A stretch of DNA of 64,000 bases from an uncultured bacterium (lineage in GTDB: Bacteria > Fermentibacterota > Fermentibacteria > Fermentibacterales > JCC-6), in NCBI GenBank assembly GCA_965371785.1, contig CBDUZS010000004.1, positions 1,963 through 65,962 on the forward strand, read 5' to 3'. Shown here piece after piece: positions 1,079 to 27,146 of the stretch. A model generated the notes under the pieces. That model made no database searches, was not told the origin of the DNA, and was given only the letters and a program-made list of their open reading frames with translations. Each line of letters begins with the position of its first letter. Position 1 is the first letter of the stretch. The translations under genes were made by a program, and so were the position numbers.

Positions 1079-1092
1079 GCCGGGACAGGCAG

Positions 1093-2778: not shown

Positions 2779-2797
2779 TTCCGGAAAGGACCGTCAG

Positions 2798-5039: not shown

Positions 5040-5073
5040 GCCGAGTGTACGGCGGATCCTGTAGGAGCCTGAT

Positions 5074-5499
5074 ATGAAGAAGGAATTCAACCCCAGGATA
5101 ACCAGTTTTCTGTGTAAGTGGTGTTCTTACACGGGAGCGGACCTGGCTGGTACCAGCAGACTGCAGTATCCGACATCGATCATCCCCCTGATGGTGATGT
5201 GCTCCAGCAGGGTCGATCCGATTTTTCTCATCAAGGCGTTCCTGAACGGTTCCGATGGTGTCATGCTCGGAGGTTGTCACCCTGGAGACTGTCACTACGA
5301 AACAGGCAACTACCATGCGAGAAGAAGATTTGCGATCGTGAAGAGTGTTTTCGAATCCCTCGGGCTCGAGGCTGACAGGCTGAAGTTATCCTGGATATCC
5401 GCATCGGAGGGGCCGAAATTCGCCCGGGTTGCCAACGAGTTCACCGAAGAGATCATCAGGCTCGGCGAGAATCCGACACGTAAGAACATTTTCCTGTGA
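5074..5499 (+). CDS. mvhD: MvhD/FlxD-type [2Fe-2S] electron-transfer subunit (methyl-viologen-reducing hydrogenase delta subunit family)
   Basis: Hallmark CKWCSYTGADLAG ... CSSRVDP ... GCHPGDCHY motifs. AGGAG RBS before ATG 5074. 141 aa. Confidence 0.85.
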   Translation: MKKEFNPRITSFLCKWCSYTGADLAGTSRLQYPTSIIPLMVMCSSRVDPIFLIKAFLNGSDGVMLGGCHPGDCHYETGNYHARRRFAIVKSVFESLGLEADRLKLSWISASEGPKFARVANEFTEEIIRLGENPTRKNIFL

Positions 5500-5528
5500 A
5501 AGAGGCTGACAGTGCGGCGGAGGAGCTG

Positions 5529-8500
5529 ATGGAAAACTGCAGTAACACGGTTCTCGTGCTTGGCGCCGGCATCGCGGGAATACAGGCTGCTCTGGATCTC
5601 GCGGAGATGGGAGCGGAGGTGCACCTCGTCGAGGATACACCCACTATTGGCGGAAGAATGCCGCAACTCGACAAGACGTTCCCGACAAATGACTGCTCCG
5701 TATGCATACTCGCTCCAAAGATGACCGAGTGCATCAGGCACCCGCTCATCAAGCTGCACGTGCTGTCCAGCCTCGAGGAGATATCGGGTTCGCCGGGGAA
5801 TTTCAGATGCAGGATAATCGAACGGGCAAAGTACGTTGATCCAGTCAAATGCGTATCCTGCGGCCTCTGTGAGGAGAAGTGCCCCGTAAAGCTCGATGAC
5901 GAATTCGATGCCGGACTCCGGAAAACGAAAGCCATCTCACGCTACTTCCTCCAGAGCGTTCCTTCCGAGTACACGATCAACCCCGAACATTGCCTCTACC
6001 TTACAAAGGGAGTCTGCAGACTCTGCGAAAAGGTCTGTCCGGCAGATGCGATAAACTTCGAGGATCAGGACAGGGAGATCGAAATTCTGGCTGGTGCAGT
6101 CATCCTCGCGACAGGTATCGATCCATTCGATCCAATTGGCTTCGGTCACTTCGGATACCACAGGTACAGCAACGTCGTAACCTCTCTCGAATTCGAGCGT
6201 ATGCTCTCCGCATCGGGCCCATTCGGCGGACACGTAGTGAAAGCGTCAGACGGCAAGCCGCCTAAAAGGCTGGCCTTCATCCAGTGTGTCGGTTCGAGGG
6301 ACGAGGGTATCGACAGGAACTACTGTTCGTCCGCCTGCTGCATGTTCGCCATAAAGCAGTCCATAATAGCAAGGGAACACAGCAGGGACCTGGAAGCAAC
6401 GATCTTCTACATGGACATAAGGGCTTTCGGCAAGGATTTCGACAGGTATTACGACAAGGCCGAGAAGCAGTACGGCGTAAGCTTCAAGAGATCCAGAGTA
6501 GCCGATATCATTGAGCTTCCGGACGGCAGCCTGAAACTGAAGTACACATTCGAGAACGGCGACATACAGTACGAAGTCTTCGACATGGTCGTTCTCTCGA
6601 TCGGTCTCGAACCCCGCAGTATCAACAGGAAACTGTCGAAGATCCTGGATGTGAAGCTGAACCGATTCGGGTTCTGCAGATCGAACACCTTCAGCCCTCT
6701 CAGCACCACCAGGGAGGGTGTGTTCGTATGCGGTGCAATGAACGGACCGAAAGATATCCCCGAGTCTGTGATATCCGCGTCAGGCGCTGTCGCGAATGCC
6801 GCCAGGTTCCTCGGGCTCGAAAGGCAGACCATTTCGACCGATGAAAAGACAATCGAAAAGGATGTTGCCGGGGAGAGACCCAGGGTCGGTGTGTTCGTGT
6901 GCCACTGCGGCATAAACATCGCTGGTGTCGTGGACGTGAAGGACGTAGCCGGTTACGCTGCCGGTCTCTACAATGTCGAACACTCCGAAGATGTAGTCTA
7001 CGCATGCTCTACCGATTGCCTGGAGACGATAAAGCAGCGTATCGAAGAGCATGATCTGAACAGGATTGTCGTCGCAGCCTGCACACCCAGGACCCACGAA
7101 CCTCTGTTCAGGGATACGATCAGTGAAGCCGGGCTGAACCCCTACCTGTTCGAGATGTCCAACATCCGTGACCAGTGCTCATGGGCGCACATGGACGAAC
7201 CAGAACTGGCAACGACAAAATCCAGGGATCTCGTGGAGATGGCTGTTGCCAAAGCGCGTGGTCTTGTTCCTTTGCAGAGACTTCCAATAGAGATCGATCC
7301 CGAAGCTCTTGTCATCGGCGGCGGGCTCTCCGGAATGACGGCGGCACTGGCCGTAGCGGATGCCGGGTACGAAGTCTTCCTGGTCGAGCGGGAAAACGTG
7401 CTCGGTGGCAATATGAGGGACATCTTCTTCAGTTTCGACGGGTCAGACCCCCAGCAGATTCTTACCGAAACCATCGAGAAAGTGCTTTCTCATGATAGGA
7501 TCAATGTATTTCTAGACAGCGAGATAACGGACATCTCCGGATACGTCGGGAACTTTCTCACCTCCCTCGTGAAGGGAGACGGATCGAGTGAAGAATTCAC
7601 CCATGGGGCAGTCATCGTAGCCACAGGCGGTGTACGCCACGAGACGGAGGATTACCTCTACGGTGAATCGAGTCGTGTGATCACTCAAATGGAATTCGAG
7701 CGGATGCTCCATGACAAGGCCTTTCCCGAAGGCCGGCTGCGGAATGTTGTAATGGTACAGTGCGTAGGTTCCAGAGAAGAAGGACGGATGTACTGCAGCC
7801 GTATCTGCTGTTCAAAGGCGGTAAAGAACGCCCTGGAACTGAAAAAGCGCAGGCGTAACACGAATATTTACTTCGCCTGCAGGGACATCAGAACCTATGG
7901 ATTCAGCGAGGAGTTCTATACGAGACTGCGGAACGAGGGAACACTGTTCTTCCGTTACACGCCCGAACGCAAGCCGCTCGTGAAGATGATCCAGCCGGAT
8001 GATCCGGACAGCAGGCTGAGGGTAACAGTCTTCGACTCCGTGCTGGAGGAGGAAGTCGTCATTGACGCCGACCTGCTGGTCCTGGCGACGGCTATCGACG
8101 CCCCGGAGGGGAACAGAAAGCTTGGTCAGATGCTCAAGGTACCGCTAAATTCCGACGGGCTGTTCCTGGAAGCACACGTGAAACTGCGCCCCGTTGACTT
8201 TGCCACCGAGGGTATTTTCGTCTGCGGGCTTGCCCACGGCCCCAAGGATATGAGTGAATCAATCGCCCAGTCCCTTGCGGCAGCCGCCAGGGCACTGACC
8301 TTCCTGTCGAAGAGGTCCATACTCGCCGAGGGTACCATTGCCCAGGTAAGGACTGACAGATGCTCCGGGTGCGGTTACTGCGAATCAGCATGCGCTTACT
8401 CAGCCATTGAAATCGATCCTGAAGAAAGCGTAGCCGTTATAAACGATGCACTTTGCAAGGGGTGTGGTGCGTGCGTCGCTTCATGCAGGTGTGGTGCTCT

Positions 8501-8588
8501 CGATCTTCGCGGATTCACCAACGATCAGCTCTTCTCGGTGTTCGATTCGCTTTCCATGGAGACTGTTGAGGGGAAAACAGCCGAATGA
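5529..8588 (+). CDS. hdrA: Fused 1.5x HdrA-like flavoprotein (FAD domain with DCSVC motif, inserted ferredoxin, then a second unit: 4-Cys N-domain, second FAD motif, C-terminal ferredoxin)
   Basis: The start is probably ATG 5529 (MENCSNT), with GGAGGAG 5 nt upstream. The track's GTG 5496 overlaps the mvhD stop and remains an alternative. Motifs in order: [19 protein letters not shown]; LDKTFPTNDCSVCILAPKM; CVSCGLCEEKCPV; FIQCVGSRDEG..CCMFAIKQ; RVGVFVCHCGINIAG; LVIGGGLSGMTAALAV; VQCVGSREEGRMYCSRICC; CSGCGYCESACAYSA..CKGCGACVASC. Confidence 0.85.
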   Translation: MENCSNTVLVLGAGIAGIQAALDLAEMGAEVHLVEDTPTIGGRMPQLDKTFPTNDCSVCILAPKMTECIRHPLIKLHVLSSLEEISGSPGNFRCRIIERAKYVDPVKCVSCGLCEEKCPVKLDDEFDAGLRKTKAISRYFLQSVPSEYTINPEHCLYLTKGVCRLCEKVCPADAINFEDQDREIEILAGAVILATGIDPFDPIGFGHFGYHRYSNVVTSLEFERMLSASGPFGGHVVKASDGKPPKRLAFIQCVGSRDEGIDRNYCSSACCMFAIKQSIIAREHSRDLEATIFYMDIRAFGKDFDRYYDKAEKQYGVSFKRSRVADIIELPDGSLKLKYTFENGDIQYEVFDMVVLSIGLEPRSINRKLSKILDVKLNRFGFCRSNTFSPLSTTREGVFVCGAMNGPKDIPESVISASGAVANAARFLGLERQTISTDEKTIEKDVAGERPRVGVFVCHCGINIAGVVDVKDVAGYAAGLYNVEHSEDVVYACSTDCLETIKQRIEEHDLNRIVVAACTPRTHEPLFRDTISEAGLNPYLFEMSNIRDQCSWAHMDEPELATTKSRDLVEMAVAKARGLVPLQRLPIEIDPEALVIGGGLSGMTAALAVADAGYEVFLVERENVLGGNMRDIFFSFDGSDPQQILTETIEKVLSHDRINVFLDSEITDISGYVGNFLTSLVKGDGSSEEFTHGAVIVATGGVRHETEDYLYGESSRVITQMEFERMLHDKAFPEGRLRNVVMVQCVGSREEGRMYCSRICCSKAVKNALELKKRRRNTNIYFACRDIRTYGFSEEFYTRLRNEGTLFFRYTPERKPLVKMIQPDDPDSRLRVTVFDSVLEEEVVIDADLLVLATAIDAPEGNRKLGQMLKVPLNSDGLFLEAHVKLRPVDFATEGIFVCGLAHGPKDMSESIAQSLAAAARALTFLSKRSILAEGTIAQVRTDRCSGCGYCESACAYSAIEIDPEESVAVINDALCKGCGACVASCRCGALDLRGFTNDQLFSVFDSLSMETVEGKTAE

Positions 8589-9004
8589 AAGAATGGCAGC
8601 CCAGAATACTCGCCATCCTGTGCAACTGGTGCTCGTATGCCGGCGCGGATCTTGCAGGTGTTTCGAGGATACAGTACCCCCCGAATATCCGGGTGGTGCG
8701 CGTTCCCTGTTCCGGGCGTGTAGACCCTCTTTTCGTGATGAAAAGCCTTTCTGCAGGATTCGACGGGGTGCTGATCTCCGGTTGCCATCCGGGTGATTGT
8801 CACTACATATCGGGCAACTACGTAGCGAGAAGGAAATTCGCCGTCCTGAACACAATCCTCGAATTCGTAGGGGTAGAGCCGGACCGGGTTCAGTTCTCCT
8901 GGATCTCTGCAGGAGAGGGTGAGCGATTCGCAGAAGTGGTGAGAAAGATAACCGAAGATGTCAGGGAACTGGGACCCTCGACCAGGCTGGTGAAGAAGGC
9001 ATGA
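8585..9004 (+). CDS. mvhD: MvhD/FlxD-type subunit
   Basis: CNWCSYAGADLAG, CSGRVDP and GCHPGDCHY motifs. The ATG overlaps the hdrA stop (ATGA). Confidence 0.85.
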   Translation: MKEWQPRILAILCNWCSYAGADLAGVSRIQYPPNIRVVRVPCSGRVDPLFVMKSLSAGFDGVLISGCHPGDCHYISGNYVARRKFAVLNTILEFVGVEPDRVQFSWISAGEGERFAEVVRKITEDVRELGPSTRLVKKA

Positions 9005-9966
9005 GTACTATGGAAGATCTTCGCAAAACCGTACGGGAGCTGCTCGCGGAGAATCGGATCGACCTTTTCATCGGATGGAAAAGCGGATCCCGCCCTCTGT
9101 CGGCAACACCTGTTTTCATCGACAACCCGGACGAGGCGGACGATCTCATTTTCGATATCACCTGCGGGAACAACCTGTCCGTTTTCTTCACGAAGGATAG
9201 AAAGCAGTTTACCGGGAAACGGATCGGAATCGCGGTAAAGGGCTGTGATGCAAGGTCACTTGTCCTGCATATCCTCGAGAAGCAGGTCGACCGCGAGAAC
9301 GTTGTAATAGTAGGAGTTCCATGCAATGGTGTGCTGGATCGAAAAAAAGTGCTCCGGAAGACTGACGGCAGGGAGATACTGGAACTGGAGGATTCAGGTT
9401 CGCAGATCGGTGTTACGGGCAACGGATTCGAACTCTCAATCAACCGCGAGGAGATACTGAGTTCGGCCTGTCTTACCTGTGTTCATCCCGACGCGAGGGA
9501 ATTCGATTTTTTCATGGGCGAGCCCAGGAAAGAAATTTCTGTAGAAGACAGGCTGAAAGAGGTGAGAGAATTCGAATCCCTGCCGGCTTCCCGGAGATGG
9601 GACCGGATGAAGCAGGAGTACGAGAAGTGCATACGCTGCTATGCCTGCAGGAATGTGTGCCCCTCATGCTACTGCAATGTGTGCTTCGTCGACCAGAACG
9701 ACCCGCGCTGGATAGGCAGCACCTGCGACTTCTCGGACACCATGATTTTTCATCTGATAAGAAACCTGCATGTGGCCGGGCGATGCGTTGAATGCGGCGC
9801 CTGCGAGAGAGCCTGTCCGATGGATATCAACCTCCTCCTTCTCAACAGGAAGGTAGCAGCCGAAGTGGAAACAAGATTCGGCGACGTAGCCGGTCTCGAT
9901 ATCGGCGGGAAACCGGCAATGGCTGACTACCGGGAAGACGAGAAGCAGGATTTCATAATGGGATAG
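9001..9966 (+). CDS. Fe-S subunit, FlxB/FlxC - HydB/AsrA-like family
   Basis: CIRCYACRNVCPSCYCNVC and CVECGACERACP clusters. The ATG overlaps the mvhD stop. It is a paralog of 2798..3958 and 9972..11003. Confidence 0.6.
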   Translation: MSTMEDLRKTVRELLAENRIDLFIGWKSGSRPLSATPVFIDNPDEADDLIFDITCGNNLSVFFTKDRKQFTGKRIGIAVKGCDARSLVLHILEKQVDRENVVIVGVPCNGVLDRKKVLRKTDGREILELEDSGSQIGVTGNGFELSINREEILSSACLTCVHPDAREFDFFMGEPRKEISVEDRLKEVREFESLPASRRWDRMKQEYEKCIRCYACRNVCPSCYCNVCFVDQNDPRWIGSTCDFSDTMIFHLIRNLHVAGRCVECGACERACPMDINLLLLNRKVAAEVETRFGDVAGLDIGGKPAMADYREDEKQDFIMG

Positions 9967-9971
9967 GGAGA

Positions 9972-11003
9972 ATGACAAGGCTGGACAAGAGTGATTTCGG
10001 GGATTTCATCCGTGAACTGGCAGAAGGCTACGACGTCTACGCTCCCGGCCTTCGTGGGAGTACAACGATCTTCGTTCCCGTTGGACCGGATGATGATATC
10101 GTCCAGGACTGTACGGTAACGGTCATGTCCCCGAAGAACGTGTTCTTTCCACAGGCCGAAGTGCTTTTCGAGTACGAGAATGGCGAGGTCAGAACGATAC
10201 CGGCCAGTACCAGACCGCTGGCAGTCTGGGGAATGAGAGGCTGCGATGTCCGCAGTCTTCACCTCCTGGACAAAGTCATGGGAGACGCAATACAGATGCC
10301 CGGGGACAAGAGATTCCAGGATCCCTACTGGAAGGAGAGGTTCGACGATTCCATCATCTTCTGTACCGCATGCAACGAGCCTCTTTCGACCTGCTTCTGC
10401 AACTGGTTCGGCGGCGGACCGCACAGCGGGACCGGAGCGGACGTCTTCGTGATCGACATCGGTGAAGCCTGGCTGATGGAACCTATGAGCGAGAAGGGTA
10501 CGGAACTCATCGCAGGGATTTCCTGCTTGAAAGACGTATCGGATGACGACCTGACAAGGGCTTCGGAGCTGGCTGCCAGGGCGGAATCTCTGATGACCGC
10601 TCCGGATGGTATCGAAGGCATCGACACGCACCTGACAGAATTGTTCGATGCCGAAGTGTGGGATAAGATCAGCGCCAAGTGTGTGACCTGCGGTGCATGC
10701 ACATTCTGCTGTCCCACCTGCCACTGCTTCGATCTCCAGGATGAGGGCAGCGGCGGCAGAGGCAAGAGGATCCGCATCTGGGACTCATGCATGTTCCCCA
10801 TATTCACGGCAGAAGCTTCTGGGCACAATCCCAGGGCTCTTTCGAAGGAACGTGTAAGGCAGAGGATCATGCACAAATTCAGTTACTACCCGGAAAGGTA
10901 CGGAGAGATGCTCTGCACTGGCTGCGGACGATGCATCTCCGCCTGTCCCGTCAACTTCGATGTAAGGGATGTGCTGAGAGAACTCCAGGAATGCGAGAGT
11001 TGA
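9972..11003 (+). CDS. Fe-S subunit, HydB/AsrA (sulfhydrogenase beta / anaerobic sulfite reductase A)-like, FlxB/FlxC-type
   Basis: CVTCGACTFCCPTCHCF and CTGCGRCISACPVNFDV motifs are typical of the HydB/AsrA family. AGGGAG RBS before ATG 9972. Confidence 0.65.
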   Translation: MTRLDKSDFGDFIRELAEGYDVYAPGLRGSTTIFVPVGPDDDIVQDCTVTVMSPKNVFFPQAEVLFEYENGEVRTIPASTRPLAVWGMRGCDVRSLHLLDKVMGDAIQMPGDKRFQDPYWKERFDDSIIFCTACNEPLSTCFCNWFGGGPHSGTGADVFVIDIGEAWLMEPMSEKGTELIAGISCLKDVSDDDLTRASELAARAESLMTAPDGIEGIDTHLTELFDAEVWDKISAKCVTCGACTFCCPTCHCFDLQDEGSGGRGKRIRIWDSCMFPIFTAEASGHNPRALSKERVRQRIMHKFSYYPERYGEMLCTGCGRCISACPVNFDVRDVLRELQECES

Positions 11004-11845
11004 GGATAGTCGTGTCGAATACCTACATTCCGCTGCAGATGAGAGTCGAGAAAATCGTCTCGGAAGATTCTGACAGGATGCTTCGCACCTATGACCTGAC
11101 CTTCCTGGACGAAGCGGAACGTAAGGCGTTCAACTACCTGCCCGGGCAGTTCTGCGAACTGTCAATACTCGGCAAGGGTGAATCACCTTTCGGGATAGCG
11201 TCCTCCCCTACTGAAGACGGCTATCTCCGTTTCACAGTGAGCAGGACCGGTACCGTAACCAACGAGATACATTACCTCAGAGTGGGTGATACCGTCGGGA
11301 TGAGAGGACCTCTCGGCAACTGGTATCCTGTGGAGGAGCTCAAGGGCGCTAACGTGTTGATAGTTGGTGGCGGGTTTGCTTTTACAACCCTGAGGTCACT
11401 TCTGGTGTACCTGCTGGAAAACAGGAGTGATTACGGAGACATAACCGTTGTTTACGGAGCGAGAACACCCGATCTCCTCATTTACAAGGACGAACTAGCC
11501 CTCTGGAAAGAGAGAGATGACCTCGAGCTGCATCTCACTATTGACAGACCGGTGGAAGGCTGGGACGGCAAGACCGGATTCGTACCGACGGTTACCGAAG
11601 AGATCGCACCCGACCGGGAAAATACGTTCGCCATCGTATGCGGACCTCCGATTATGATCAAGTTCACACTGCCGGTGCTCACAGCACTTGGATTCCCCGA
11701 CGACAGGATCTACACTTCCCTCGAACGGCGCATGAAGTGCGGCATAGGCAAGTGCGGGAGGTGTAACATCGGGTCGAAATACATCTGCATCGACGGGCCC
11801 GTGTTCTCGATGGCCGAGCTCAGGATGATACCCGAGCCTGTCTAG
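10991..11845 (+). CDS. FAD/NAD(P)H-binding oxidoreductase with C-terminal [2Fe-2S], FlxA / HydG / AsrB-like
   Basis: The start is ATG 10991 (MRELRIV), overlapping the previous stop. The track's upstream Met at 10787 is out of context. FNR-like fold motifs: YLPGQFCEL, VLIVGGGFAFTTL, CGPPIMI. The C-terminal CGIGKCGRCNIG is a 2Fe-2S motif. Confidence 0.7.
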   Translation: MRELRIVVSNTYIPLQMRVEKIVSEDSDRMLRTYDLTFLDEAERKAFNYLPGQFCELSILGKGESPFGIASSPTEDGYLRFTVSRTGTVTNEIHYLRVGDTVGMRGPLGNWYPVEELKGANVLIVGGGFAFTTLRSLLVYLLENRSDYGDITVVYGARTPDLLIYKDELALWKERDDLELHLTIDRPVEGWDGKTGFVPTVTEEIAPDRENTFAIVCGPPIMIKFTLPVLTALGFPDDRIYTSLERRMKCGIGKCGRCNIGSKYICIDGPVFSMAELRMIPEPV

Positions 11846-12331
11846 ATGGAGACTATAGAGATGAAGAAGATAATCCTCGCCGAGAAAGACCCGAACTTCA
11901 AGAATCAAATTGCATCACAGCCAGGTGCGGAGTCCTTCATGAAGTGCTTCACCTGCGGCACCTGCACGGCTACCTGCCCCGTGGCAGAGGTGCATGATGA
12001 GTACGATCCGAGAAAGATAATAAGGATGGCCATACTGGGTATGCGTGAGGAGGTCCTCTCCTCCGACATTCTCTGGATGTGTTCGAGATGCTACGCTTGC
12101 GCTGCCCTCTGCCCTCAGAACGTGAAGTTCACCGATGTCATCAGCATTCTCAGAGATATGGCTGTGAAAGAGGGATACGTTCCAGCAGAACGGCTCGAGA
12201 AGGCCAGGGAACTCGACAGAATCGTGCAGAGCCTTCGATGCAGGCTCATAGAACAGAAACTGCATCCTGACGACGAGAACAGAGCTGAAATCAAACGCGT
12301 GCTCGAGGGTGAACTGGAGGAATCATGGTAG
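11846..12331 (+). CDS. HdrC-like 2x[4Fe-4S] ferredoxin-type subunit
   Basis: Two CxxCxxCxxxCP motifs (CFTCGTCTATCP and CSRCYACAALCP). 161 aa. Immediately upstream of the giant HdrA. Confidence 0.6.
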   Translation: METIEMKKIILAEKDPNFKNQIASQPGAESFMKCFTCGTCTATCPVAEVHDEYDPRKIIRMAILGMREEVLSSDILWMCSRCYACAALCPQNVKFTDVISILRDMAVKEGYVPAERLEKARELDRIVQSLRCRLIEQKLHPDDENRAEIKRVLEGELEESW

Positions 12332-12377
12332 TTCTGCTTGATGCATTCCCCTGTTTGACACGGCGGGGCAGCTGAAC

Positions 12378-15300
12378 ATGTCCAACGGAGCGCCAGAGCC
12401 GAAGAAAGAATTGGTTACGACAGCCACACGTAGATCGGGAGCAGTGCTCGTGGTCGGCGGCGGCATAGCTGGAATCCAGTCATCTCTTGATCTGGCCGAC
12501 TCCGGATTCAAGGTTTACCTGGTCGAGGATTCACCCGCAATCGGCGGAATCATGGCCCAGCTGGACAAGACGTTCCCTACGAATGACTGCGCCATGTGTG
12601 TCATCTCTCCCAAGCTGGTTGAATGCGGGAGACATCTCAATATAGAACTGCTGACTGACTCGAATCTGGTCTCCCTTGAAGGTGAACCCGGCAACTTCAC
12701 GGCAAGAGTGTACAAACGTCCCCGCTTTGTCGATCTGGAAACCTGCACCGGCTGTGGTGAATGCGTAGAAGTGTGCCCCGTAAGCGTCTTGTCGTTGTTC
12801 GACGAGAACCTTGTCGATAGAAAGGCAATCTATAAGCCCTATGCCCAGGCCTCCCCGAACGCATTTGTCATCGACAAGGCAGAGACACCCCCCTGTCAAC
12901 TCGCCTGCCCGTCAGGGATTCACGTACAGGGCTACGTTGCTCTCGTGGCTGAAGGCAAGTACGAAGAGGCATACGACCTGATCAGGAAGAACAACCCGTT
13001 CGTCTCGGTCTGCGGAAGGGTCTGTCATCATCCGTGCGAAACGGAATGCCGTCGTGGAGAGTACGATGAGCCTGTCGATATCAGATCCATCAAGCGGTTC
13101 ATCGCCGATTACGTCCATGCACATCACGAGGAGTTCGAAAAGAACACTGACGAAACCGTTCCCGATAAGAGCGAGAAAGTTGCCGTGATAGGTGCGGGAC
13201 CCGCCGGGCTCACCTGCGCATTCTACCTGGCCAGGGAAGGTTATCAGGTCACCATATTCGAGAAGGATGACAAGGCAGGGGGAATGCTGCGATTGGGAAT
13301 CCCCTCCTACAGGCTCCCTGAGGAAGAACTCGACTGGGAGATAGAACAGATTTTGAGAGAGGGAATCGAGCTTCGTACGAATTCACCCATAGGCCCGGAG
13401 GATTTTGCCGGACTGCGGGAGCACTACGATGCTTTGTTCGTATCGGTCGGATTCTCCTACGGAAGAAAGCTGGACATCGATGGAGCAGATAACTCCGGAG
13501 TCCAGACCGGGATAGAATTCCTGAGAAAGGTGAACGGAAACGTCGAGCCCGACCTCGGTAAAAAAATGGTTGTCATAGGCGGCGGAAACGTAGCGATAGA
13601 TGTAGCGAAATCAGCAATCCGCCTTGGCTCGGAGGTGGAGCTTTACTGCCTGGAATCCCGAAGGGAAATGCCTGCCCACGGCTGGGAGATCACTGAGGCA
13701 ATCGAGGAAGGGATCCGGATCAATCCGTCATGGGGACCCGCGGAGATAATCGGTGAGAACGGCAGAGTGAAGGGTATCCGCTTGCGGAAATGCACTTCCG
13801 TTTTCGATTCGGAGGGAAATTTCAATCCGCAGTTCGATAATGAGGATGTTATAGAAACCGATTGCGACGATGTGATCATCGCCATCGGGCAGAGCTCTGA
13901 CATTACCTTCCTGAAGGAAACGGACTCCGGGCTGAAGCAGACGGTACCGGTGGATCCCCTGACATTTTCAACTTCCATCGATGGAGTGTTCGCAGCCGGA
14001 GACATCATTCGCGGCCCGGCTTCGGTCGTCGAGGCGGTAGGACAGGCTCACGAGGCGGCCCTGTCGATCGATCGATACCTCAGAGGCGAGGATATGTCCG
14101 ATGGAAGAACCGTGGAGGATGAGCTTCCAGCCAGGGAACCCCCTATGGATGTCCCGCTCAGGCAGCGTGTTCAGATGGGTTTCATTCCTCCAGCCGAGCG
14201 TGTGAAGGATTTCTGTGAAGTCGAACTCGGTTTCTCCGAAGAGGAGGTTCGCGAAGAAGCCGGACGCTGTCTCGAGTGCGGTCTCTGCTCACGCTGTCTG
14301 CAGTGCGAGGTCGTCTGTGAAGCAAATGCGATCAACCACGCCATGACCGGGGAAATGGTCGATATCCGGGTCGGAGCGGTCATTCTAACATCTGGAGCCG
14401 AGGCATTCGATCCTTCCCCGCTGCACGAGTTCGGCTACGGACGTTACGATAACGTATTAACCAGTATTCAGTTCGAGAGAATATTAGCCGCATCAGGTCC
14501 CTTCGAGGGGCATCTGCAGAGACCTTCCGACGACAAGGTTCCGACAAGGATAGCATGGCTTCAATGTGTCGGGTCGAGAACCGAGGACACTCACATGCCG
14601 TACTGCTCCTCCGTCTGCTGCATGTACGCGATCAAAGAGGCGATAATCGCAAAGGAGCATGTGAGCTCTGTTGAGCCGACCATGTTCTTCATGGACATGC
14701 GTGCACACGGCAAGGATTTCGACAGCTACTACGAACGGGCTGTCGAGATGGGTGTGAGGTTTGTCAGGTCAAGGGTCAGCAAGATAAGAGAAATCAACGA
14801 TTCCGGTAACCTCGAGCTGCGTTACGTGACAGAGGACGGCACCGTACGGTTCGAGGAGTTCGATCTCGTGGTTCTGTCCGTCGGTCTCGATCACAACAGG
14901 CTCAACGCAGAGATATCGGATAACCTCGGACTCCGTCTGAACGAGTACAGCTTCATCGACTCCTCACAGCATTCACCCATACTGACTTCGCGGCCGGGGG
15001 TCTTCGTTTCCGGACCTGCAGGTTCCCCGATGGATATCCCGGAGACCGTCACCCAGGCTTCGGGATCGGTAGCCGGTGCAGCGGAGATCCTTTCGGATAC
15101 CCGGGGCACGGAGATCATCGAGAAGGAGTATCCCGAAGAGATCGACGTAAGCGGGAAAAGACCAAGGATTGGTGTTTTCATCTGCCGTTGCGGAACCAAT
15201 ATCGCAAGCATTGTCGACGTACCCTCGGTAGTCGAATTCGCGCGAACCCTTCCGGATGTTGTTTACGCCGGTGAGAACCTGTTCACCTGCTCTCAGGACA

Positions 15301-16859
15301 CACAGAAGAAGATAAAGGAGATAATCGACGAGAATCGTCTGAACAGGATAGTCGTCTCTTCCTGCTCCCCCAGCACTCACGAACCGCTCTTTCAGGAAAC
15401 CATCAGGGAAGCAGGGCTTAACCGCTACCTGTTCAACATGGCCAACATCAGGAACCACTGCAGCTGGGTCCACCGGAACGATCCGGTGCAGGCGACGGAA
15501 AAGGCGAAGATCCTGACCCGAATCGCTGTGGGCAAGTCACGGCTGCTGAATCCCCTTCATACAGTCGTCCTCGATGTGGTGCAGAAGGGGCTGGTCGTCG
15601 GCGGGGGGCTTGCCGGTATGACTGCAGCACTCTCCGTCGCCGAACAGGGCTACGATGTGGCTCTGGTCGAGAGAGAAAGTGTGTTCGGCGGCAACCTGTT
15701 GCGGCTTACGAAGAAACCTGACGGTCTCGACGTACTCGAGTATCTGAATGACCTGATCAGCCGACTGGAATCCCATCCCCGCGTCCACATCTACCTGAAT
15801 TCCACTATCGATGCCGTTGATGGATACATCGGAAACTACCTTACATCGATCCGCAACAACGAAACTGAAGAGATCGAGGATTACAAGCACGGTATAATCA
15901 TCATCACCACGGGAGGAGTGGAAACCAGCCCGGACTCATATCTGTACGGGAATTCTGATGGAGCAGTTCTCACACAGCTGGAACTCGAGAAGGATCTCGA
16001 GCACGACTGCGACTCGTACGCCAGAATGAAGAGTGTTGTGATGATTCAGTGTGTGGGGTCGAGGGAAGAGGAACACCCATACTGTTCCAGAGTCTGCTGC
16101 ACACAGTCCGTCAAGAACGCTATCCGGCTCAAGGAGCTCAATCCTGATCTGAACGTCTACATCCTCTACAGAGATATGAGGACCTACGGATTCAACGAGC
16201 GATACTACCAGCAGGCCAGGGCAATGGGTGTCGTGTTCATGAGATTTGATAAGGACGAAAAGCCCATAGTCGAATTCGACGGAACCGGAGAAGACAGAAA
16301 GATCAGAGTCAGTGTGGTCGACCATGTTCTCGGTGCAACCATCGAGATAGCTCCCGACCGCGTGATCCTCGCACCCGCCATCGAGCCGAGGGAAGATGCT
16401 TCGCGACTGTCGCAGATGCTCAAGATACCGCTCAACGAAAACCGGTTCTTCATGGAAGCTCACGTTAAACTCAGACCCGTGGATTTTTCGGCGGAGGGGA
16501 TATACCTTGCCGGTCTGGCTCATTCTCCCAAGGGTATGGACGAGACGATCTCACAGGCCAAGGCTGCCGCGGAGAGAGCCTGCATCATTATCAGTTCGGA
16601 CGAGTACCTGGCAGTAGCCAACATTGCCAGTGTGGATCAGGACGTTTGCGTCGGCTGCGGGTTATGCGTTTCGGTCTGCCCATACAACGCTCTCGGGCTT
16701 GTCTGGCAAAGCGGGAAAAACGTCTGTTCGGTGAATACCGCTCTCTGCAAGGGTTGCGGCAGCTGTTCATCGGTATGCCCGTCCGGAGCCATGGAGCAGC
16801 TCGGATACACCGAAGAGCAGACACTGGAGATGGTCGAGCTTACCCAGATCATTTTCTGA
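12378..16859 (+). CDS. Giant HdrA-GltD-HdrA fusion flavoprotein (1493 aa): HdrA FAD/ferredoxin unit, inserted NADPH-dependent glutamate-synthase-beta/NfnB-like module, then a second HdrA-like unit with C-terminal ferredoxin
   Basis: HdrA-type motifs: [19 protein letters not shown]; LDKTFPTNDCAMCVISPKL; CTGCGECVEVCPV. GltD-type motifs: CGRVCHHPCETEC; VAVIGAGPAGLTCAFYLAREGY; VVIGGGNVAIDVA. Second HdrA unit: WLQCVGSRTED..CCMYAIKE; RIGVFICRCGTNIAS; LVVGGGLAGMTAAL; IQCVGSREEEHPYCSRVCC; CVGCGLCVSVCPY..CKGCGSCSSVCP. Confidence 0.8.
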   Translation: MSNGAPEPKKELVTTATRRSGAVLVVGGGIAGIQSSLDLADSGFKVYLVEDSPAIGGIMAQLDKTFPTNDCAMCVISPKLVECGRHLNIELLTDSNLVSLEGEPGNFTARVYKRPRFVDLETCTGCGECVEVCPVSVLSLFDENLVDRKAIYKPYAQASPNAFVIDKAETPPCQLACPSGIHVQGYVALVAEGKYEEAYDLIRKNNPFVSVCGRVCHHPCETECRRGEYDEPVDIRSIKRFIADYVHAHHEEFEKNTDETVPDKSEKVAVIGAGPAGLTCAFYLAREGYQVTIFEKDDKAGGMLRLGIPSYRLPEEELDWEIEQILREGIELRTNSPIGPEDFAGLREHYDALFVSVGFSYGRKLDIDGADNSGVQTGIEFLRKVNGNVEPDLGKKMVVIGGGNVAIDVAKSAIRLGSEVELYCLESRREMPAHGWEITEAIEEGIRINPSWGPAEIIGENGRVKGIRLRKCTSVFDSEGNFNPQFDNEDVIETDCDDVIIAIGQSSDITFLKETDSGLKQTVPVDPLTFSTSIDGVFAAGDIIRGPASVVEAVGQAHEAALSIDRYLRGEDMSDGRTVEDELPAREPPMDVPLRQRVQMGFIPPAERVKDFCEVELGFSEEEVREEAGRCLECGLCSRCLQCEVVCEANAINHAMTGEMVDIRVGAVILTSGAEAFDPSPLHEFGYGRYDNVLTSIQFERILAASGPFEGHLQRPSDDKVPTRIAWLQCVGSRTEDTHMPYCSSVCCMYAIKEAIIAKEHVSSVEPTMFFMDMRAHGKDFDSYYERAVEMGVRFVRSRVSKIREINDSGNLELRYVTEDGTVRFEEFDLVVLSVGLDHNRLNAEISDNLGLRLNEYSFIDSSQHSPILTSRPGVFVSGPAGSPMDIPETVTQASGSVAGAAEILSDTRGTEIIEKEYPEEIDVSGKRPRIGVFICRCGTNIASIVDVPSVVEFARTLPDVVYAGENLFTCSQDTQKKIKEIIDENRLNRIVVSSCSPSTHEPLFQETIREAGLNRYLFNMANIRNHCSWVHRNDPVQATEKAKILTRIAVGKSRLLNPLHTVVLDVVQKGLVVGGGLAGMTAALSVAEQGYDVALVERESVFGGNLLRLTKKPDGLDVLEYLNDLISRLESHPRVHIYLNSTIDAVDGYIGNYLTSIRNNETEEIEDYKHGIIIITTGGVETSPDSYLYGNSDGAVLTQLELEKDLEHDCDSYARMKSVVMIQCVGSREEEHPYCSRVCCTQSVKNAIRLKELNPDLNVYILYRDMRTYGFNERYYQQARAMGVVFMRFDKDEKPIVEFDGTGEDRKIRVSVVDHVLGATIEIAPDRVILAPAIEPREDASRLSQMLKIPLNENRFFMEAHVKLRPVDFSAEGIYLAGLAHSPKGMDETISQAKAAAERACIIISSDEYLAVANIASVDQDVCVGCGLCVSVCPYNALGLVWQSGKNVCSVNTALCKGCGSCSSVCPSGAMEQLGYTEEQTLEMVELTQIIF

Positions 16860-16941
16860 CGGCAACAAGCCCTCACTTCTCACGGCTTCCATGTAGGAAT
16901 GACGACGCTATACACTCCCACTGCCGGGAAGGAGTAAATCC

Positions 16942-17637
16942 ATGAGCAGTCAACAAGAGTTTGCCTTGCCGAAGTGCGCTTACTGCAAGGAGGAAAGGAA
17001 GGTCTGTACAAATCCTGCTGGAACCGGTCCCGTCTGGTGCCCGACTCTTACTCTGGAGGTTCTGGTCAGCAAAGCTTTCGAGGAGTACGATGACCGCGGC
17101 ACCATGGAGCTCGCTAGAGCTGCCACCGTACAGGAAGGTGAATGCTACATCGGCAGGTCGAGGGGTGCCGAAGCCGCTCCCTACCCCGTAAAGCCCAGGG
17201 CTCTGGAGATAATCGAACTCGCCGGGAAAATGGGCTACAGCAGAATAGGCATTGCCTTCTGCACGGGGCTGATGGAGGAGGCAAGGCTCTTCAGTGAAAT
17301 TCTCATATCAGCTGGTCTGGAGGCTGTTTCCGTCTGCTGCAAGGTGGGAAGAACTCCGAAGGAGAGAATAGGTGTTCTCGACGATCAGAAGATCCGTATC
17401 GGGGAGTTCGAGGCGATGTGCAGCCCGGTTGCCCAGGCTCGCATTCTCGATCGGAGCGGGACGGACCTCAACGTAGTCATCGGGCTTTGCGTCGGCCATG
17501 ATTCGCTGTTCTTCAAATACAGCTCAGTCCCGGTAACGGTGCTCGTAGCGAAGGACAGGGTTACGGGCCACAATCCCGCAGCGGTTCTGTACACCGCTCA
17601 CAGCTACTACAGGAACCTGTTGAAGGGACCTTTCTGA
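16942..17637 (+). CDS. Cys-rich metal-binding protein, DUF1847-like
   Basis: 231 aa. CAYCKEERKVC..WCP and LCVGHD motifs. AGGAG RBS before ATG 16942. The DUF assignment is from memory of the family signature. Confidence 0.45.
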   Translation: MSSQQEFALPKCAYCKEERKVCTNPAGTGPVWCPTLTLEVLVSKAFEEYDDRGTMELARAATVQEGECYIGRSRGAEAAPYPVKPRALEIIELAGKMGYSRIGIAFCTGLMEEARLFSEILISAGLEAVSVCCKVGRTPKERIGVLDDQKIRIGEFEAMCSPVAQARILDRSGTDLNVVIGLCVGHDSLFFKYSSVPVTVLVAKDRVTGHNPAAVLYTAHSYYRNLLKGPF

Positions 17638-17828
17638 TCCTTGACCTCCCTGAACAATCTACAGAACGTTGGCATTGCAAACGGGGCCGATTTTTGCACG
17701 GTGTTGTGGCAATCGTGCTACTCACCTTCTACGTTGCCGGATAATTATACTAGCCCCTTAAAACAGCTGAAGAGGAGACGGACATAGGCGGACAGAACAG
17801 AGTACTGCTGTTTCTGCTCATATTCATC

Positions 17829-19037
17829 ATGTTCTCGTTTGTTATCACCGGGATAGCTGTTGATGGACCAGGCAGAGCTTTCGGTGGATTTCTTGAGCTG
17901 CAGTTTCAGCCGGCAAGACTCATCACTGACTTCATAGCCACCAGCGGCACAGGCGCCGCCCTTGTCAACGCCGCAGCGGTTGGCATTGTGGGGTTATTCC
18001 TTACTACGATGTCAAAGGTCCAATTGTCTGGATCGACCTTTGCTGCCATTTTTACGATGATGGGTTTCGCCCTGTTCGGAAAAACACCAATGAACATCAT
18101 CCCGATAATCATTGGAGTTTACATTTCGGGAAAACTGGTCGGCAGGAGTTTTGCAGAATACATAATCATTGCCCTTTTCGGAACCGCTCTTGGTCCGCTG
18201 ATCAGCGTTTTTTCTTTTGAGCTGGGGCTTTCGGGATTACCTGCAATCGCCGTTGGAACTGCTGCAGGAATCGGAACGGGTTTTCTGCTTCCGGCAATTG
18301 CCGTGTCCATGCTGCATCTCCACCAGGGATACAACCTTTACAACATGGGTTTGTCCTGTGGTTTTTTCGCTCTCTTTGCAGCCGCACTGATCAGGGCGGG
18401 AGGGCACACTTTCGAGGGACTCCTGCAGTGGCATACGGAGGGATCTGCAACGCTTTCATTTCTGATACCCGCTCTCTCGGGCATCCTGATCCTGACGGGG
18501 CTGCTGGCAGGAGGCATGAAGAGCCTGAGGAGTTTTAAGGCCATCCAGAAACATTCGGGCCGACTCCCCTCGGATTTCATGGACATGGAATCGATGGAGG
18601 GAGCTCTGCTCAACGCCGGGTTTATCGGTCTTGCAGGCTCTCTTTACATTCTGCTGATCGGCGGGGATTTCAACGGTCCCACTATCGGGGGGCTCCTGAC
18701 CATCATGGGATTTGGTGCTTTCGGCACACATTTTCGTAATTCATGGCCGATCGTTCTCGGAGTTATCATTGCAACGGTTGTATTCGGCAAATCACTTACA
18801 GCTCCCGGTGCGATCCTTGCCGCAATTTTCTGTACAACCCTCGCACCGCTGGCAGGGGCATTCGGAGTTCTTACGGGATTGGTCGCCGGGTTCACGCACC
18901 TTGCCCTGGTTCATCAGACCGGATCCTGGCAGGGTGGTATGAACCTCTACAACAATGGTTTTGCCGGAGGCCTGACCGCTGCATTCATCGTCTCGGTTAT
19001 TATGTGGTATCGTTCAAAGGACACTGGTTATGAATAG
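17829..19037 (+). CDS. Polytopic integral membrane protein of unknown function with an internal two-fold repeat (DUF1576-like)
   Basis: 402 aa. Multiple hydrophobic segments. The motif HLHQGYNLYNMG is repeated as HQTGSWQGGMNLYNNGFAGG. No ATG/GTG/TTG occurs upstream in frame after the stop at 17751. Confidence 0.5.
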   Translation: MFSFVITGIAVDGPGRAFGGFLELQFQPARLITDFIATSGTGAALVNAAAVGIVGLFLTTMSKVQLSGSTFAAIFTMMGFALFGKTPMNIIPIIIGVYISGKLVGRSFAEYIIIALFGTALGPLISVFSFELGLSGLPAIAVGTAAGIGTGFLLPAIAVSMLHLHQGYNLYNMGLSCGFFALFAAALIRAGGHTFEGLLQWHTEGSATLSFLIPALSGILILTGLLAGGMKSLRSFKAIQKHSGRLPSDFMDMESMEGALLNAGFIGLAGSLYILLIGGDFNGPTIGGLLTIMGFGAFGTHFRNSWPIVLGVIIATVVFGKSLTAPGAILAAIFCTTLAPLAGAFGVLTGLVAGFTHLALVHQTGSWQGGMNLYNNGFAGGLTAAFIVSVIMWYRSKDTGYE

Positions 19038-19064
19038 GTTGTTGTTTCTCGGGAGAAGAAAACC

Positions 19065-19451
19065 ATGAAGAGAAAAGAACTGATTCTCCACCTGATCGGT
19101 GGAATATCGAATTACATGCTGGAGAACAATCCTTCAAGGCTGGTCATTTCACTTCATCAGGAGGAGGATGGGCTACACCTCTCCGCTTTCGATGACAGGG
19201 CTCACAGCGATGAGGAAATAGAGAGAATAGACCTGGCCTTGAACAGTCAGAAAAGACCAGAACTGGCGGGCTATTACGGGGCCATGACCGGCCACGACTT
19301 GCTGGGGGCTTCCCGGCTTAATCTGCTCGGCTGGCAGGTGAAACACTGTGATGTATCGAGAACCTCCAACGGCATTAAGGTAGACATCTGGCTGGGCGGA
19401 GATCGGTTTGAAAGCGATCGGTTTACGCTCCCGGTCAAGGACCAGCAATAG
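19065..19451 (+). CDS. Hypothetical protein (128 aa)
   Basis: GGAGAAG RBS before ATG 19065. No recognisable motif. Confidence 0.45.
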   Translation: MKRKELILHLIGGISNYMLENNPSRLVISLHQEEDGLHLSAFDDRAHSDEEIERIDLALNSQKRPELAGYYGAMTGHDLLGASRLNLLGWQVKHCDVSRTSNGIKVDIWLGGDRFESDRFTLPVKDQQ

Positions 19452-19573
19452 GGGTTTCCTTCGGATCGTTCCATACCGGGTTGAATCGTATCATGGTTCG
19501 TGGTATTGTAGCCTGAAAGGTTTCCGGACCGTCCAAGTGGCGGTGTAATCCATACACCCTGGAGGGGGAAGAA

Positions 19574-20044
19574 ATGAAACTTGTTATCGTACTTGCATCG
19601 GCAGTGATGCTCGTGCTCATGGCCTGCGGCGGAGGAGGCGGGCTGCCCGAGGATGCCGTGAAGGACTTCATCGGGGCAGTCAAGGCCGGTGACGGCGAGA
19701 AGGCTGCCAGTTACCTGTCCACCTACGCGCTGGAAGAGCTGGACGTGCAGCTCGAAGCACTAAAGGAGGATCCCGAGATGGCGGTTATGGCCCTCGGGAC
19801 CATGGGAGTCGAAACGACTGTCAGTGAAGTCGAGGATTGGACTTCCAGAGTCTTCTTCGCAGCACTCATCGAAACCGAAGCAATGAGGGCAGAGCTGGGT
19901 GACAAACTCGATGTGGAAGTCACCGGCTCGGAAATCGAAGGTGACGATGCACTCGTCTTCCTCAAAACCGTCGATGGTGAAGAGGAAGAAGTCGAAATGA
20001 CCCTCGAGAACGGAGAGTGGAAGATCTACGAAATGCCGGACTGA
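19574..20044 (+). CDS. Acidic lipoprotein of unknown function
   Basis: Signal peptide with lipobox LMAC-GGGGG. GGAGGGGG RBS. Followed by a terminator. Confidence 0.6.
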   Translation: MKLVIVLASAVMLVLMACGGGGGLPEDAVKDFIGAVKAGDGEKAASYLSTYALEELDVQLEALKEDPEMAVMALGTMGVETTVSEVEDWTSRVFFAALIETEAMRAELGDKLDVEVTGSEIEGDDALVFLKTVDGEEEEVEMTLENGEWKIYEMPD

Positions 20045-20062
20045 TTCCATCCGGTTACTTCT

Positions 20063-20099
20063 GGACGCCCCGTGACATTCCGATCACGGGGCGTTTTTC
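20063..20099. terminator. Bidirectional rho-independent terminator between convergent genes
   Basis: Stem ACGCCCCGTGA / TCACGGGGCGT followed by TTTTTCT. It sits between the lipoprotein stop (20044) and the stop of the minus-strand sigma-54 regulator (20112). Confidence 0.7.
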
Positions 20100-20111
20100 T
20101 GACCCCGCGGT

Positions 20112-21458: not shown

Positions 21459-21459
21459 T

Positions 21460-27136: not shown

Positions 27137-27146
27137 GGCCAGCTCC

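Follow-up and report, generated by a model that had tools for sequence, protein, structure and literature searches.

An intact HdrL-type HdrA–NfnB fusion flavoprotein gene in an Flx-linked gene cluster of an uncultured Fermentibacterota bacterium

The window, by which we mean the whole 64,000-nucleotide stretch of DNA analysed here, comes from an uncultured bacterium of the Fermentibacterota (GenBank assembly GCA_965371785.1, contig CBDUZS010000004.1, positions 1,963 to 65,962 of the forward strand). Between positions 12378 and 16859 it carries a single large open reading frame (ORF), which is an intact gene for an HdrL-type HdrA–NfnB fusion flavoprotein and an ordinary member of a widespread type; we refer to its product as HdrL. 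The protein is predicted from its sequence to hold three flavin adenine dinucleotide (FAD) cofactors and about nine [4Fe-4S] clusters. Its parts are given below with residue numbers and supporting evidence, where 5ODC_A denotes the structurally characterized HdrA chain used for alignment.

12378..16859, + strand: HdrL-type ORF, 1493 residues, 4482 nt, ATG start, the only stop being the terminal one
12435..12881, + strand: HdrA unit 1, N-terminal part, residues 20-168, gap-free alignment to 5ODC_A 146-291
12882..14285, + strand: nested NfnB/StnC-type module, residues 169-636 (Pfam, NCBIfam, colinearity with PDB chains, absence from a paralogue)
13563..13670, + strand: pyridine-nucleotide specificity stretch of that module, residues 396-431, GGGNVAIDVAKSAIRLGSEVELYCLESRREMPA (alignment)
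14286..15098, + strand: HdrA unit 1, C-terminal part, residues 637-907 (5ODC alignment, conserved cysteines, AlphaFold2 model)
15159..15557, + strand: HdrA unit 2, N-terminal [4Fe-4S] domain, residues 928-1060 (C936, C938, C971, C996, C1028), aligning to 5ODC_A 3-155
15579..16607, + strand: HdrA unit 2, thioredoxin-reductase-like FAD domain, residues 1068-1410, with GGGLAG and CSRVCCTQSVK (K1246)
16620..16802, + strand: HdrA unit 2, C-terminal 2x[4Fe-4S] ferredoxin domain, residues 1415-1475 (Pfam, 5ODC alignment)

An earlier annotation made from the DNA letters, hereafter the original prediction, had read this ORF as a serial arrangement of an HdrA, a GltD and a second HdrA module. The alignments do not bear out that order. 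Residues 146-291 of 5ODC_A correspond to HdrL 23-168 and residues 292-510 to HdrL 630-852, while residues 3-155 and 475-645 correspond to HdrL 928-1080 and 1315-1485. The HdrA numbering thus runs seamlessly over an insertion of ~470 residues, and the layout is therefore nested rather than serial, with the GltD/NfnB-like module lying inside HdrA unit 1. A tandem HdrA paralogue encoded at 5496-8588 delimits the insert independently, as it aligns to HdrL residues 20-179 and 640-1487 at 46-48% identity. Upstream of the insert, unit 1 comprises an FAD Rossmann motif (GGGIAG), a TFPTNDCAMC loop and a first ferredoxin motif, CxxCxxCxxxCP (C123-C133). Downstream follow a second ferredoxin motif (C637xxC640xxC643xxxC647) and the remainder of the thioredoxin-reductase-like FAD domain, with cluster cysteines C730, C743, C747 and C748 and with K753, the equivalent of Lys409, which is invariant in 69 homologues. 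This downstream part of unit 1, residues 637-907 with their own CCMYAIK cluster/FAD motif, was overlooked in the earlier list of modules.

The two HdrA units are complementary. Unit 1 has neither the N-terminal domain nor the C-terminal ferredoxin domain, and unit 2 has neither the Cys197 motif nor the inserted ferredoxin domain. The equivalent of Cys197 of methanogen HdrA is C74 of unit 1, which is invariant in the 69 homologues. All four HdrA domains and their ligands are present, distributed between the two units of one chain, so both units are HdrA-like, as had been proposed, yet they are the halves of a pseudo-dimer and not two complete HdrAs. HdrL is accordingly best described, at the level of domain alignment, as a predicted single-chain pseudo-heterodimer of two complementary HdrA units. 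The same Cys197/N-domain complementarity, in fused or tandem HdrAs that serve as their own heterodimeric partner, is described in PMC9012536; in the fused archaeal HdrA3/4 covered there, the N-domain unit precedes the Cys197 unit, the reverse of the order in HdrL.

The identity and integrity of the gene were then assessed. Every motif quoted in the original prediction was located at its stated residue, including DCAMC at 70, CGRVCHHPCETEC at 212, GAGPAG at 272, GGGNVA at 401, CRCGTNIAS at 936, CCTQ at 1240 and the C-terminal 2x CxxCxxCxxxC at 1424-1467. The claim that the middle module is GltD/NfnB-like also held: Pfam places Fer4_20 at residues 169-249 (8e-20) and Pyr_redox_2 at 267-557 (8e-54), the NfnB-like family PRK12771 matches residues 165-668 (2e-167; 558 bits, above the curated cutoff of 516), and NfnI, GltD and DPD chains match the same region. 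HdrA-like sequence on both sides of it is supported by the 5ODC alignment and by NCBIfam HdrA profiles, which match in four stretches (HdrA2 4e-280, also 8e-209), with all scores below the equivalog cutoffs (NF040770 931/1100, NF041778 695/1400, NF041891 683/1300). These scores, and the lack of an HdrB partner in the cluster, led us to reject a canonical HdrABC identity. When the PDB was searched with the whole protein, the matches included HdrA (5ODC, 1e-182) and subunits of NfnABC, Stn and NfnI (1e-102 to 1e-75).

Sister Fermentibacteria loci do divide the equivalent region among three genes, which raises the question of whether three adjacent genes were merged here by a sequencing or assembly error. 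This is almost certainly not the case. The split loci carry a different, NuoE/F/G-like insert, and the HdrA numbering is unbroken over the insert in HdrL. An independent Joint Genome Institute (JGI) metagenome contig (L081, 45 kb) encodes a 93%-identical protein, also of 1493 residues, with the same neighbours and gene order. A full-length, contiguous HdrL gene is found in 50 of 80 species-representative genome loci, and more than 100 protein clusters of ~1470-1690 residues from many phyla cover at least 97% of HdrL at 50-93% identity. The reading as one gene is upheld by these data, which show no sign of a frameshift. Selenocysteine recoding was likewise considered: the ORF contains no in-frame stop, C71 and C74 are cysteines, and selenocysteine is not obligatory for the HdrL family.

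In unit 1, the inserted ferredoxin domain has two cluster motifs, and the sequence places the NfnB-like module precisely in between. The module contains cluster cysteines C173, C177, C212, C216, C220 and C224, an FAD-binding GAGPAG and a GGGNVA for reduced nicotinamide adenine dinucleotide or its phosphate (NAD(P)H). Its closest PDB chains, with which it is colinear, are 9bov_A (6.5e-103), 9n5u_A and 8oh5_C, followed by NfnI-L, NfnB, GltD and DPD. Relative to canonical NfnB and GltD, the module is circularly permuted: the N-terminal head of NfnI-L (residues 15-46, ending RCLxC) aligns to HdrL residues 604-635, behind both Rossmann domains. This displaced head ends in RC631LEC634, and the return junction reads RC631LEC634GLC637SRC640LQC643EVVC647, in which the CxxC of the NfnB head is followed at once by a perfect ferredoxin CxxCxxCxxxC. 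Together with C123, C126, C129, C133 and the cysteines of the insert, the junction comprises 16 cysteines, 15 of them invariant in the 69 homologues and the other, C212, present in at least 90%; they are therefore enough for four [4Fe-4S] clusters. R312, also invariant in the 69 homologues, aligns to R201 of NfnI-L, an alignment that is not proof of bifurcation. In Pf NfnI-L, R201 is the arginine at N5 of the bifurcating FAD and the equivalent of R187 in Tm NfnB.

Structural modeling is consistent with this layout. The AlphaFold2 model of residues 1-920 is a confident one, with a predicted local distance difference test score (pLDDT) of 88.5 and a predicted template modeling score (pTM) of 0.84, its weak parts being residues 1-16 and the Cys197 loop (65-74), whose partner domain lies outside the modeled stretch. 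Foldseek searches with this model recovered Stn/NfnABC subunits (E ~1e-49) and, over the insertion, HdrA cores with target-normalized TM-scores of 0.87-0.92.

The nucleotide used by the module can be approached from the specificity stretch. In NfnI-L, StnC and NfnABC, YRR(T) closes the second Rossmann strand and provides an Arg pair for the 2'-phosphate of NADPH. The residues of HdrL that align to this Arg-Arg are Leu425-Glu426, in the local sequence Y-C-L-E-S-R-R. As a general rule for Rossmann folds, NAD(H) is favored when the second strand ends in an acidic residue. Because Leu-Glu replaces Arg-Arg here, because the canonical NfnB (30619-32085) and a StnC-like gene (23462-27196) in the same window retain YRR, and because sister loci substitute a NuoE/F/G-like module, which typically uses NADH, the nucleotide of HdrL is likely to be NADH. 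A canonical NfnB identity was rejected for the insert on account of its permuted order and the absence of the YRR(T) Arg pair. Across a MAFFT alignment of 121 sequences (the query and 120 homologues), the motif is C-L-E in 80 and YRR in 25, with most of the other 16 being close variants such as C-V-E. The YRR type occurs in Cloacimonadota, Neomarinimicrobiota (Marinimicrobia) and Delongbacteria loci that share the gene order of the window, and the CLE type in loci from Desulfobacterota, Planctomycetes and Spirochaetes. The difference between Leu-Glu and Arg-Arg is probably an NADH-versus-NADPH switch that divides the HdrL family.

The two YRR-bearing genes belong to separate loci on the - strand. 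What looks like a Stn/NfnABC-like operon at 23462-29353 comprises a gene for a 1243-residue protein of the 8OH5_C/9BOV_A type (Fer2_4, NfnB-like, Nqo3-like and molybdopterin-like domains), a NuoF-like gene at 27147-28925 and, at ~28955-29353, a stretch resembling NuoE. A canonical NfnAB pair lies at 30619-32957, with NfnB (full Fer4_20 and Pyr_redox_2) followed by an NfnA-like gene at 32079-32957. Going by these annotations, NfnB-type modules of three different kinds would lie inside 20 kb of the organism's DNA.

The genes upstream of HdrL are as follows.

5074..5499, + strand: second MvhD-like gene, 141 residues, missed by a 150-residue ORF filter
5496..8588, + strand: paralogous tandem HdrA, ~1012-1030 residues, with the same two-unit scaffold and the NfnB-like insert absent
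8585..9004, + strand: MvhD/FlxD-like protein (FlpD domain)
9001..9966, + strand: FlxC-like iron-sulfur protein, 321 residues
9972..11003, + strand: FlxB-like iron-sulfur protein (AsrA/HydB-like, Fer4_22)
10991..11845, + strand: FlxA-like protein (AsrB/HydG/NfnA fold family), FAD/NAD(P)H-binding, with a C-terminal [2Fe-2S] site; start probably ATG 10991
11846..12331, + strand: HdrC-like 2x[4Fe-4S] protein, 161 residues, 46 bp 5' of HdrL (TIGR03290 2e-27, below the curated cutoff)

The order is therefore MvhD, tandem HdrA, MvhD, FlxC-like, FlxB-like, FlxA-like, HdrC-like, HdrL and DUF1847. All genes from 5074 to 17637 are on the + strand, with computed gaps of -4 to 82 bp between 5496 and 17637, and of -4 to 46 bp as far as 16859. 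This tight same-strand spacing over 5074-16859, together with a gene order conserved across phyla, suggests that these genes are operon partners of HdrL. Both MvhD genes are co-located with HdrL and lie upstream of it, not immediately downstream. A scan of 4800-20200 for promoters and terminators returned fewer matches than shuffled sequence and was uninformative, and a tRNA scan gave no match. The earlier proposal that an NAD(P)H module in an HdrA scaffold makes an NAD(P)H-linked enzyme is sensible; its corollary, that the enzyme is self-contained and needs no separate Flx/Mvh partners, does not hold, since HdrL has MvhD genes near it at nearly all loci and the operon here encodes two MvhD, FlxA/B/C-like and HdrC-like proteins. 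The predicted genes between 62 and 20041 yielded no HdrB/CCG protein; the sole CCG protein of the window (60801-61952) belongs to a separate cluster.

Several further genes adjoin this operon. On its 5' side (62-5499, + strand) lies an unfused HdrA pair, of which the first is a C-terminal part cut by the window edge (62-1078) and the second a 570-residue unit with an N-domain plus a ferredoxin domain at its C-terminus (1066-2778). Two iron-sulfur proteins of ~390 residues with an HdrC-type Fer4_8 domain follow at 2798-3958 and 3861-5039, and have a faint FrhB/FdhB-like signal in the sister contig. On the 3' side, DUF1847 (231 residues) and DUF1576 (402 residues) occupy 16942-19037 (+ strand), both here and on the 93%-identical contig. 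They were rejected as conserved partners, being absent from all 80 species-level loci, and are probably lineage-specific neighbors.

From these data we propose, with a probability of about 60%, that HdrL and its partners form a soluble multi-subunit complex for flavin-based electron bifurcation or confurcation that connects NAD(P)H, ferredoxin and a third partner. In solved complexes of methanogen HdrA, low-potential electrons leave the bifurcating FAD via the N-domain cluster and the inserted ferredoxin domain, toward ferredoxin or polyferredoxin; the C-terminal ferredoxin domain with MvhD is the input, and the cluster of the thioredoxin-reductase domain leads to HdrC and on to HdrB (PMC13518236; PMC9012536). 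In NfnB, the clusters form the low-potential path from its own bifurcating FAD (PMC10482914). As its sequence shows, HdrL joins the NfnB cluster arm and the HdrA inserted-ferredoxin arm covalently. In the proposed complex, NAD(P)H, probably NADH, would exchange hydride with the NfnB-like FAD. By homology, single electrons would then step from the pair of NfnB-type clusters to the pair in the inserted ferredoxin domain and from there, by way of the unit 2 N-domain cluster that C74 of unit 1 would complete in trans, to an HdrA FAD. The gene order suggests that HdrC and MvhD/Flx would attach at the other two HdrA ports, and that the two MvhD, the FlxA/B/C-like proteins and the second tandem HdrA would be linked to HdrL. 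Because the operon lacks HdrB, the third partner should not be a classical HdrB-bound heterodisulfide. Were this wiring correct, a built-in pyridine-nucleotide module on the HdrA scaffold would replace diffusible ferredoxin.

A number of points weigh against this proposal. Homology is the basis for the continuous wire and for the ligation by C74 in trans, and one motif the basis for the nucleotide preference. NAD(P)H, at -320 mV, is placed on what is normally the low-potential exit arm, and sequence cannot decide the direction of flow or which flavin, if any, bifurcates; nor can it decide whether the NfnB-like flavin bifurcates or only turns hydride into single electrons, the role it has in GltD and DPD. 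The HdrL operon gives no pointer to a third substrate, as HdrB/CCG, MetFV and DsrC are all absent from it, and the neighboring genes may form two separate complexes instead of one. A PDB search returned no solved structure with a tandem or NfnB-inserted HdrA, and the literature searched describes no purified or assayed HdrL.

A simpler enzyme can also be considered, in which a GltD/DPD-like insert and HdrA flavins acting as one-/two-electron converters form a non-bifurcating NAD(P)H dehydrogenase wire to one acceptor, with no energy coupling. GltD and DPD homologues match the insert region, and these enzymes use the equivalent clusters as plain wires. The operon has no obvious high-potential, disulfide-reducing HdrB, and many HdrA-like proteins, the Qmo subunits among them, are not known to bifurcate. 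We nevertheless regard such a wire as unlikely, if worth keeping in view. HdrL retains all core elements of a bifurcating HdrA, namely the two FAD sites together with their conserved Lys, the Cys acting in trans and three exit arms. Its insert comes closest to NfnB-like domains from bifurcating enzymes (Stn/NfnABC) and has kept Arg312, which is invariant and aligns to R201 of NfnI-L, and the operon supplies several distinct modules for input and output.

The distribution of these genes places HdrL in a wider context. The core proteins are 77-90% identical to those of Aegiribacteria and Fermentibacteria genomes, and the source is therefore probably one of this group. Scored within 9 kb upstream of HdrL, Flx-like genes occur in 12 of the 37 full-length loci whose upstream sequence extends to 6 kb or more. 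Among the 12 are loci from Cloacimonadota, Neomarinimicrobiota and Delongbacteria and four from Desulfobacteraceae (L014, L034, L061, L067), and the recurrent order is tandem HdrA, MvhD, FlxC/B/A-like, (HdrC), HdrL. The independent JGI contig has this order as well, so the neighborhood with an Flx-like module is not the oddity that the original prediction took it for. Immediately downstream of HdrL, 34 of 47 loci carry MvhD, after which come MetV and MetF. The succession HdrL, MvhD, MetV (DUF5981) and MetF is found in ~40 of the 80 loci (L012-L078, e.g. L026:9941-16490), from Desulfobacterota, Planctomycetes, Spirochaetes and Leptospirales. This synteny suggests that HdrL in such loci is the base of a methylene-tetrahydrofolate reductase that is linked to NAD(P)H and has no HdrBC.

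It might follow that the HdrL of the window is also the core of an NAD(P)H-dependent methylene-tetrahydrofolate reductase, similar to MetFV-HdrABC-MvhD of Moorella, with MetFV encoded elsewhere in the genome. NADH is the substrate of the Moorella complex, whose HdrA is a fused double one (PMC5861303; PMC9012536), and the four Desulfobacteraceae loci combine upstream tandem-HdrA/MvhD/FlxCBA genes with downstream MvhD-MetVF. This is very unlikely for the window, however: tblastn with the sequences of locus L026 gave no MetV or MetF match in the 64 kb, there is none on the 45-kb sister contig, and the Cloacimonadota, Marinimicrobia and Delongbacteria loci of the same gene order have none. On these grounds a MetFV-Hdr identity was rejected.

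The Flx-like genes invite a different comparison. The FlxA-like protein matches the AsrB/HydG/PyrK-type relatives of NfnA, and with the NfnB-like insert it would provide two pyridine-nucleotide sites, so that the operon could specify an Hdr-scaffolded, Nfn-like transhydrogenase for exchange between NADH, NADPH and ferredoxin, in which the HdrA units take the place of free ferredoxin as low-potential partner or connect to it. The NADPH-type YRR of the same-order Cloacimonadota, Marinimicrobia and Delongbacteria orthologues and the lack of any other substrate-specific subunit in the operon agree with this. We consider it quite unlikely all the same. The insert in the window has the NADH-like Leu-Glu, the window already encodes a canonical NfnAB and a Stn/NfnABC-like enzyme, and FlxA normally partners FlxB. 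Moreover, of the 50 full-length loci, 37 of which have the upstream sequence specified above, just 12 show FlxABC-like genes ahead of HdrL, and 34 of 47 pair HdrL with MvhD and MetV/MetF instead.

A further variation of the same scaffold was detected in eleven loci from Fermentibacteria, Aegiribacteria, Sabulitectum and unclassified genomes (L030 (9986-16032), L041, L046, L050, L063, L064, L068, L072, L073, L076 and L079). Their core is 70-76% identical to HdrL and they have the same upstream cluster, with L030 adding an FrhB/FdhB-like gene after the HdrC-like gene, but the NfnB-like insert is missing and three translationally coupled genes stand in its place. The first encodes an HdrA N-fragment that ends after ferredoxin motif 1 and is fused to a NuoE-like [2Fe-2S] domain (291 residues), the second a NuoF-like subunit for flavin mononucleotide (FMN) and NADH (630 residues), and the third a NuoG/HydA-like N-terminal iron-sulfur region fused to the remainder of unit 1 and to unit 2 (1091 residues). 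The break point lies ~30 residues upstream of the NfnB insertion point, and owing to this offset the NuoE/F/G and NfnB graftings look independent. Two different pyridine-nucleotide modules have thus been grafted into one and the same inserted ferredoxin domain.

A more elaborate assembly can be imagined, in which a single super-complex, independent of HdrB, unites HdrL with the second tandem HdrA, two MvhD, HdrC and the FlxABC-like proteins. In it, two bifurcation-type flavins, the NfnB-like FAD and an HdrA FAD, would be hard-wired by their low-potential arms, free ferredoxin being absent between them. We regard this as speculative and rather unlikely. If true, it would amount to a new serial or double bifurcation, for example for NADH/NADPH/ferredoxin exchange or for the reduction of a very low-potential acceptor, and the swap between NfnB-like and NuoE/F/G-like modules would make the inserted ferredoxin arm a general plug-in socket for pyridine-nucleotide modules.

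Elsewhere in the window, a second Hdr cluster occupies 54443-62596 (+ strand). It comprises subunits of pyruvate:ferredoxin oxidoreductase (POR; 54443-57148), a 982-residue tandem HdrA (57392-60340), MvhD (60337-60804), an HdrD-like HdrC/HdrB fusion with CCG domains (60801-61952) and the start of an HdrA-like gene (61985-62596), and is similar to a cluster, 'HdrAL/POR', that has been reported from Syntrophobacter fumaroxidans. Genes for a sigma-54-type response regulator and for a PAS histidine kinase (20112-23439, - strand) converge on the end of the HdrL cluster. Two large proteins of 1070 and 993 residues (33091-39384) each combine a response-regulator receiver domain with a PPDK_N domain of the phosphoenolpyruvate-utilizing (PEP-utilizing) type.

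Sulfate reducers, syntrophs and many uncultured anaerobic phyla are rich in HdrL-type proteins, and the reaction that these proteins catalyze is a gap in anaerobic bioenergetics. The operon of the window, which is clean, free of selenocysteine, all-in-one and Fermentibacteria-like, could suit expression. The name was given in 2009 to a 'heterodisulfide reductase/glutamate synthase fusion' of Desulfobacterium autotrophicum with an NADH-binding site and a co-located MvhD (PMC2702500). HdrL was later found to be abundant in sulfate-grown Syntrophobacter fumaroxidans (PMC5947623), was proposed as an electron acceptor from NAD(P)H (PMC2702500; PMC5947623), and was invoked again in 2025 (PMC12142623). 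The protein of the window shares the traits of this family: HdrA-homologous regions and a GltD/NfnB-like NAD(P)H-FAD module in one large soluble chain, with mvhD co-located. A nested NfnB-like insertion within HdrA's inserted ferredoxin domain is moreover described for ANME-1 HdrA9-11 by Chadwick et al. 2022 (PMC9012536). The arrangement called unusual in the original prediction is therefore a published one, and the window reveals no new architecture. Four details receive no mention in the literature searched, namely the permutation with its 16-Cys junction, the CLE/YRR split of the family, the lack of HdrB in the Flx-linked gene order and the NuoE/F/G replacement; these are modest refinements and not a new system.

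Among enzymes of known structure, StnC of Sporomusa ovata StnABC (8OH5) and NfnABC (9BOV, 9N5U) possess the NfnB-like domain that is the top sequence and fold match to the insert, with the head permuted alike. In these proteins the domain is fused to HydA/formate-dehydrogenase-like iron-sulfur domains, has NuoE/F-like partners and carries YRR, whereas in HdrL it is inserted into HdrA and carries Leu-Glu. The N-terminal module of NfnAB, GltD and DPD shares with the insert two [4Fe-4S] clusters, FAD and NAD(P)H Rossmann domains and the motifs GRVC...C...C and GG(M/V)L.(Y/L)GIP.(F/Y)RLP. The insert differs in being permuted and in lacking the 2'-phosphate Arg pair, and it has no NfnA fused or adjacent to it save the distant FlxA-like protein. 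In class II benzoyl-CoA reductase, the tandem HdrA-like BamE reportedly works with a separate, NAD(H)-binding, NuoE/F/G-like BamGHI (Kung et al. 2009; Huwiler et al. 2019). The NuoE/F/G variant of the Fermentibacteria resembles a fused form of this BamE and BamGHI pairing, with the substrate module BamBC absent; compared with BamE/BamGHI, the NAD(P)H module of HdrL is of NfnB type and intramolecular.

Among Hdr systems, FlxABCD-HdrABC of Desulfovibrio vulgaris (Ramos et al. 2015, as cited in PMC6037941 and PMC5861303) has adjoining Flx-, HdrA- and HdrC-like genes and an NADH-linked, Hdr-type role. The window encodes FlxA/B/C/D-, HdrA- and HdrC-like proteins but no HdrB, for which reason this identity was rejected, and its HdrA partners are two tandem HdrAs, one of which has an NAD(P)H module to itself. 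In Moorella thermoacetica, MetFV-HdrABC-MvhD combines a fused double HdrA holding two FAD with MvhD and an NADH substrate (PMC5861303; PMC9012536), while the window has neither MetFV nor HdrB beside HdrL. ANME-1 HdrA9/10/11 embody the same idea of two flavin sites coupled to NAD(P)H in archaeal proteins (PMC9012536). A close likeness, judged by published description, is to HdrL1-3 of D. autotrophicum HRM2 and to Sfum_0824 of S. fumaroxidans, which are likewise large soluble chains of HdrA and a glutamate-synthase-small-subunit-like NAD(P)H/FAD module with mvhD nearby. The D. autotrophicum HdrLs are partly selenocysteine proteins, and HdrL3 has an extra fumarate-reductase-like region, whereas the HdrL of the window has Cys throughout. 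In D. autotrophicum, MvhD directly follows and dsr genes come after HdrL1; in the window, MvhD lies upstream and the neighbors are Flx-like and HdrC-like genes and a second tandem HdrA.

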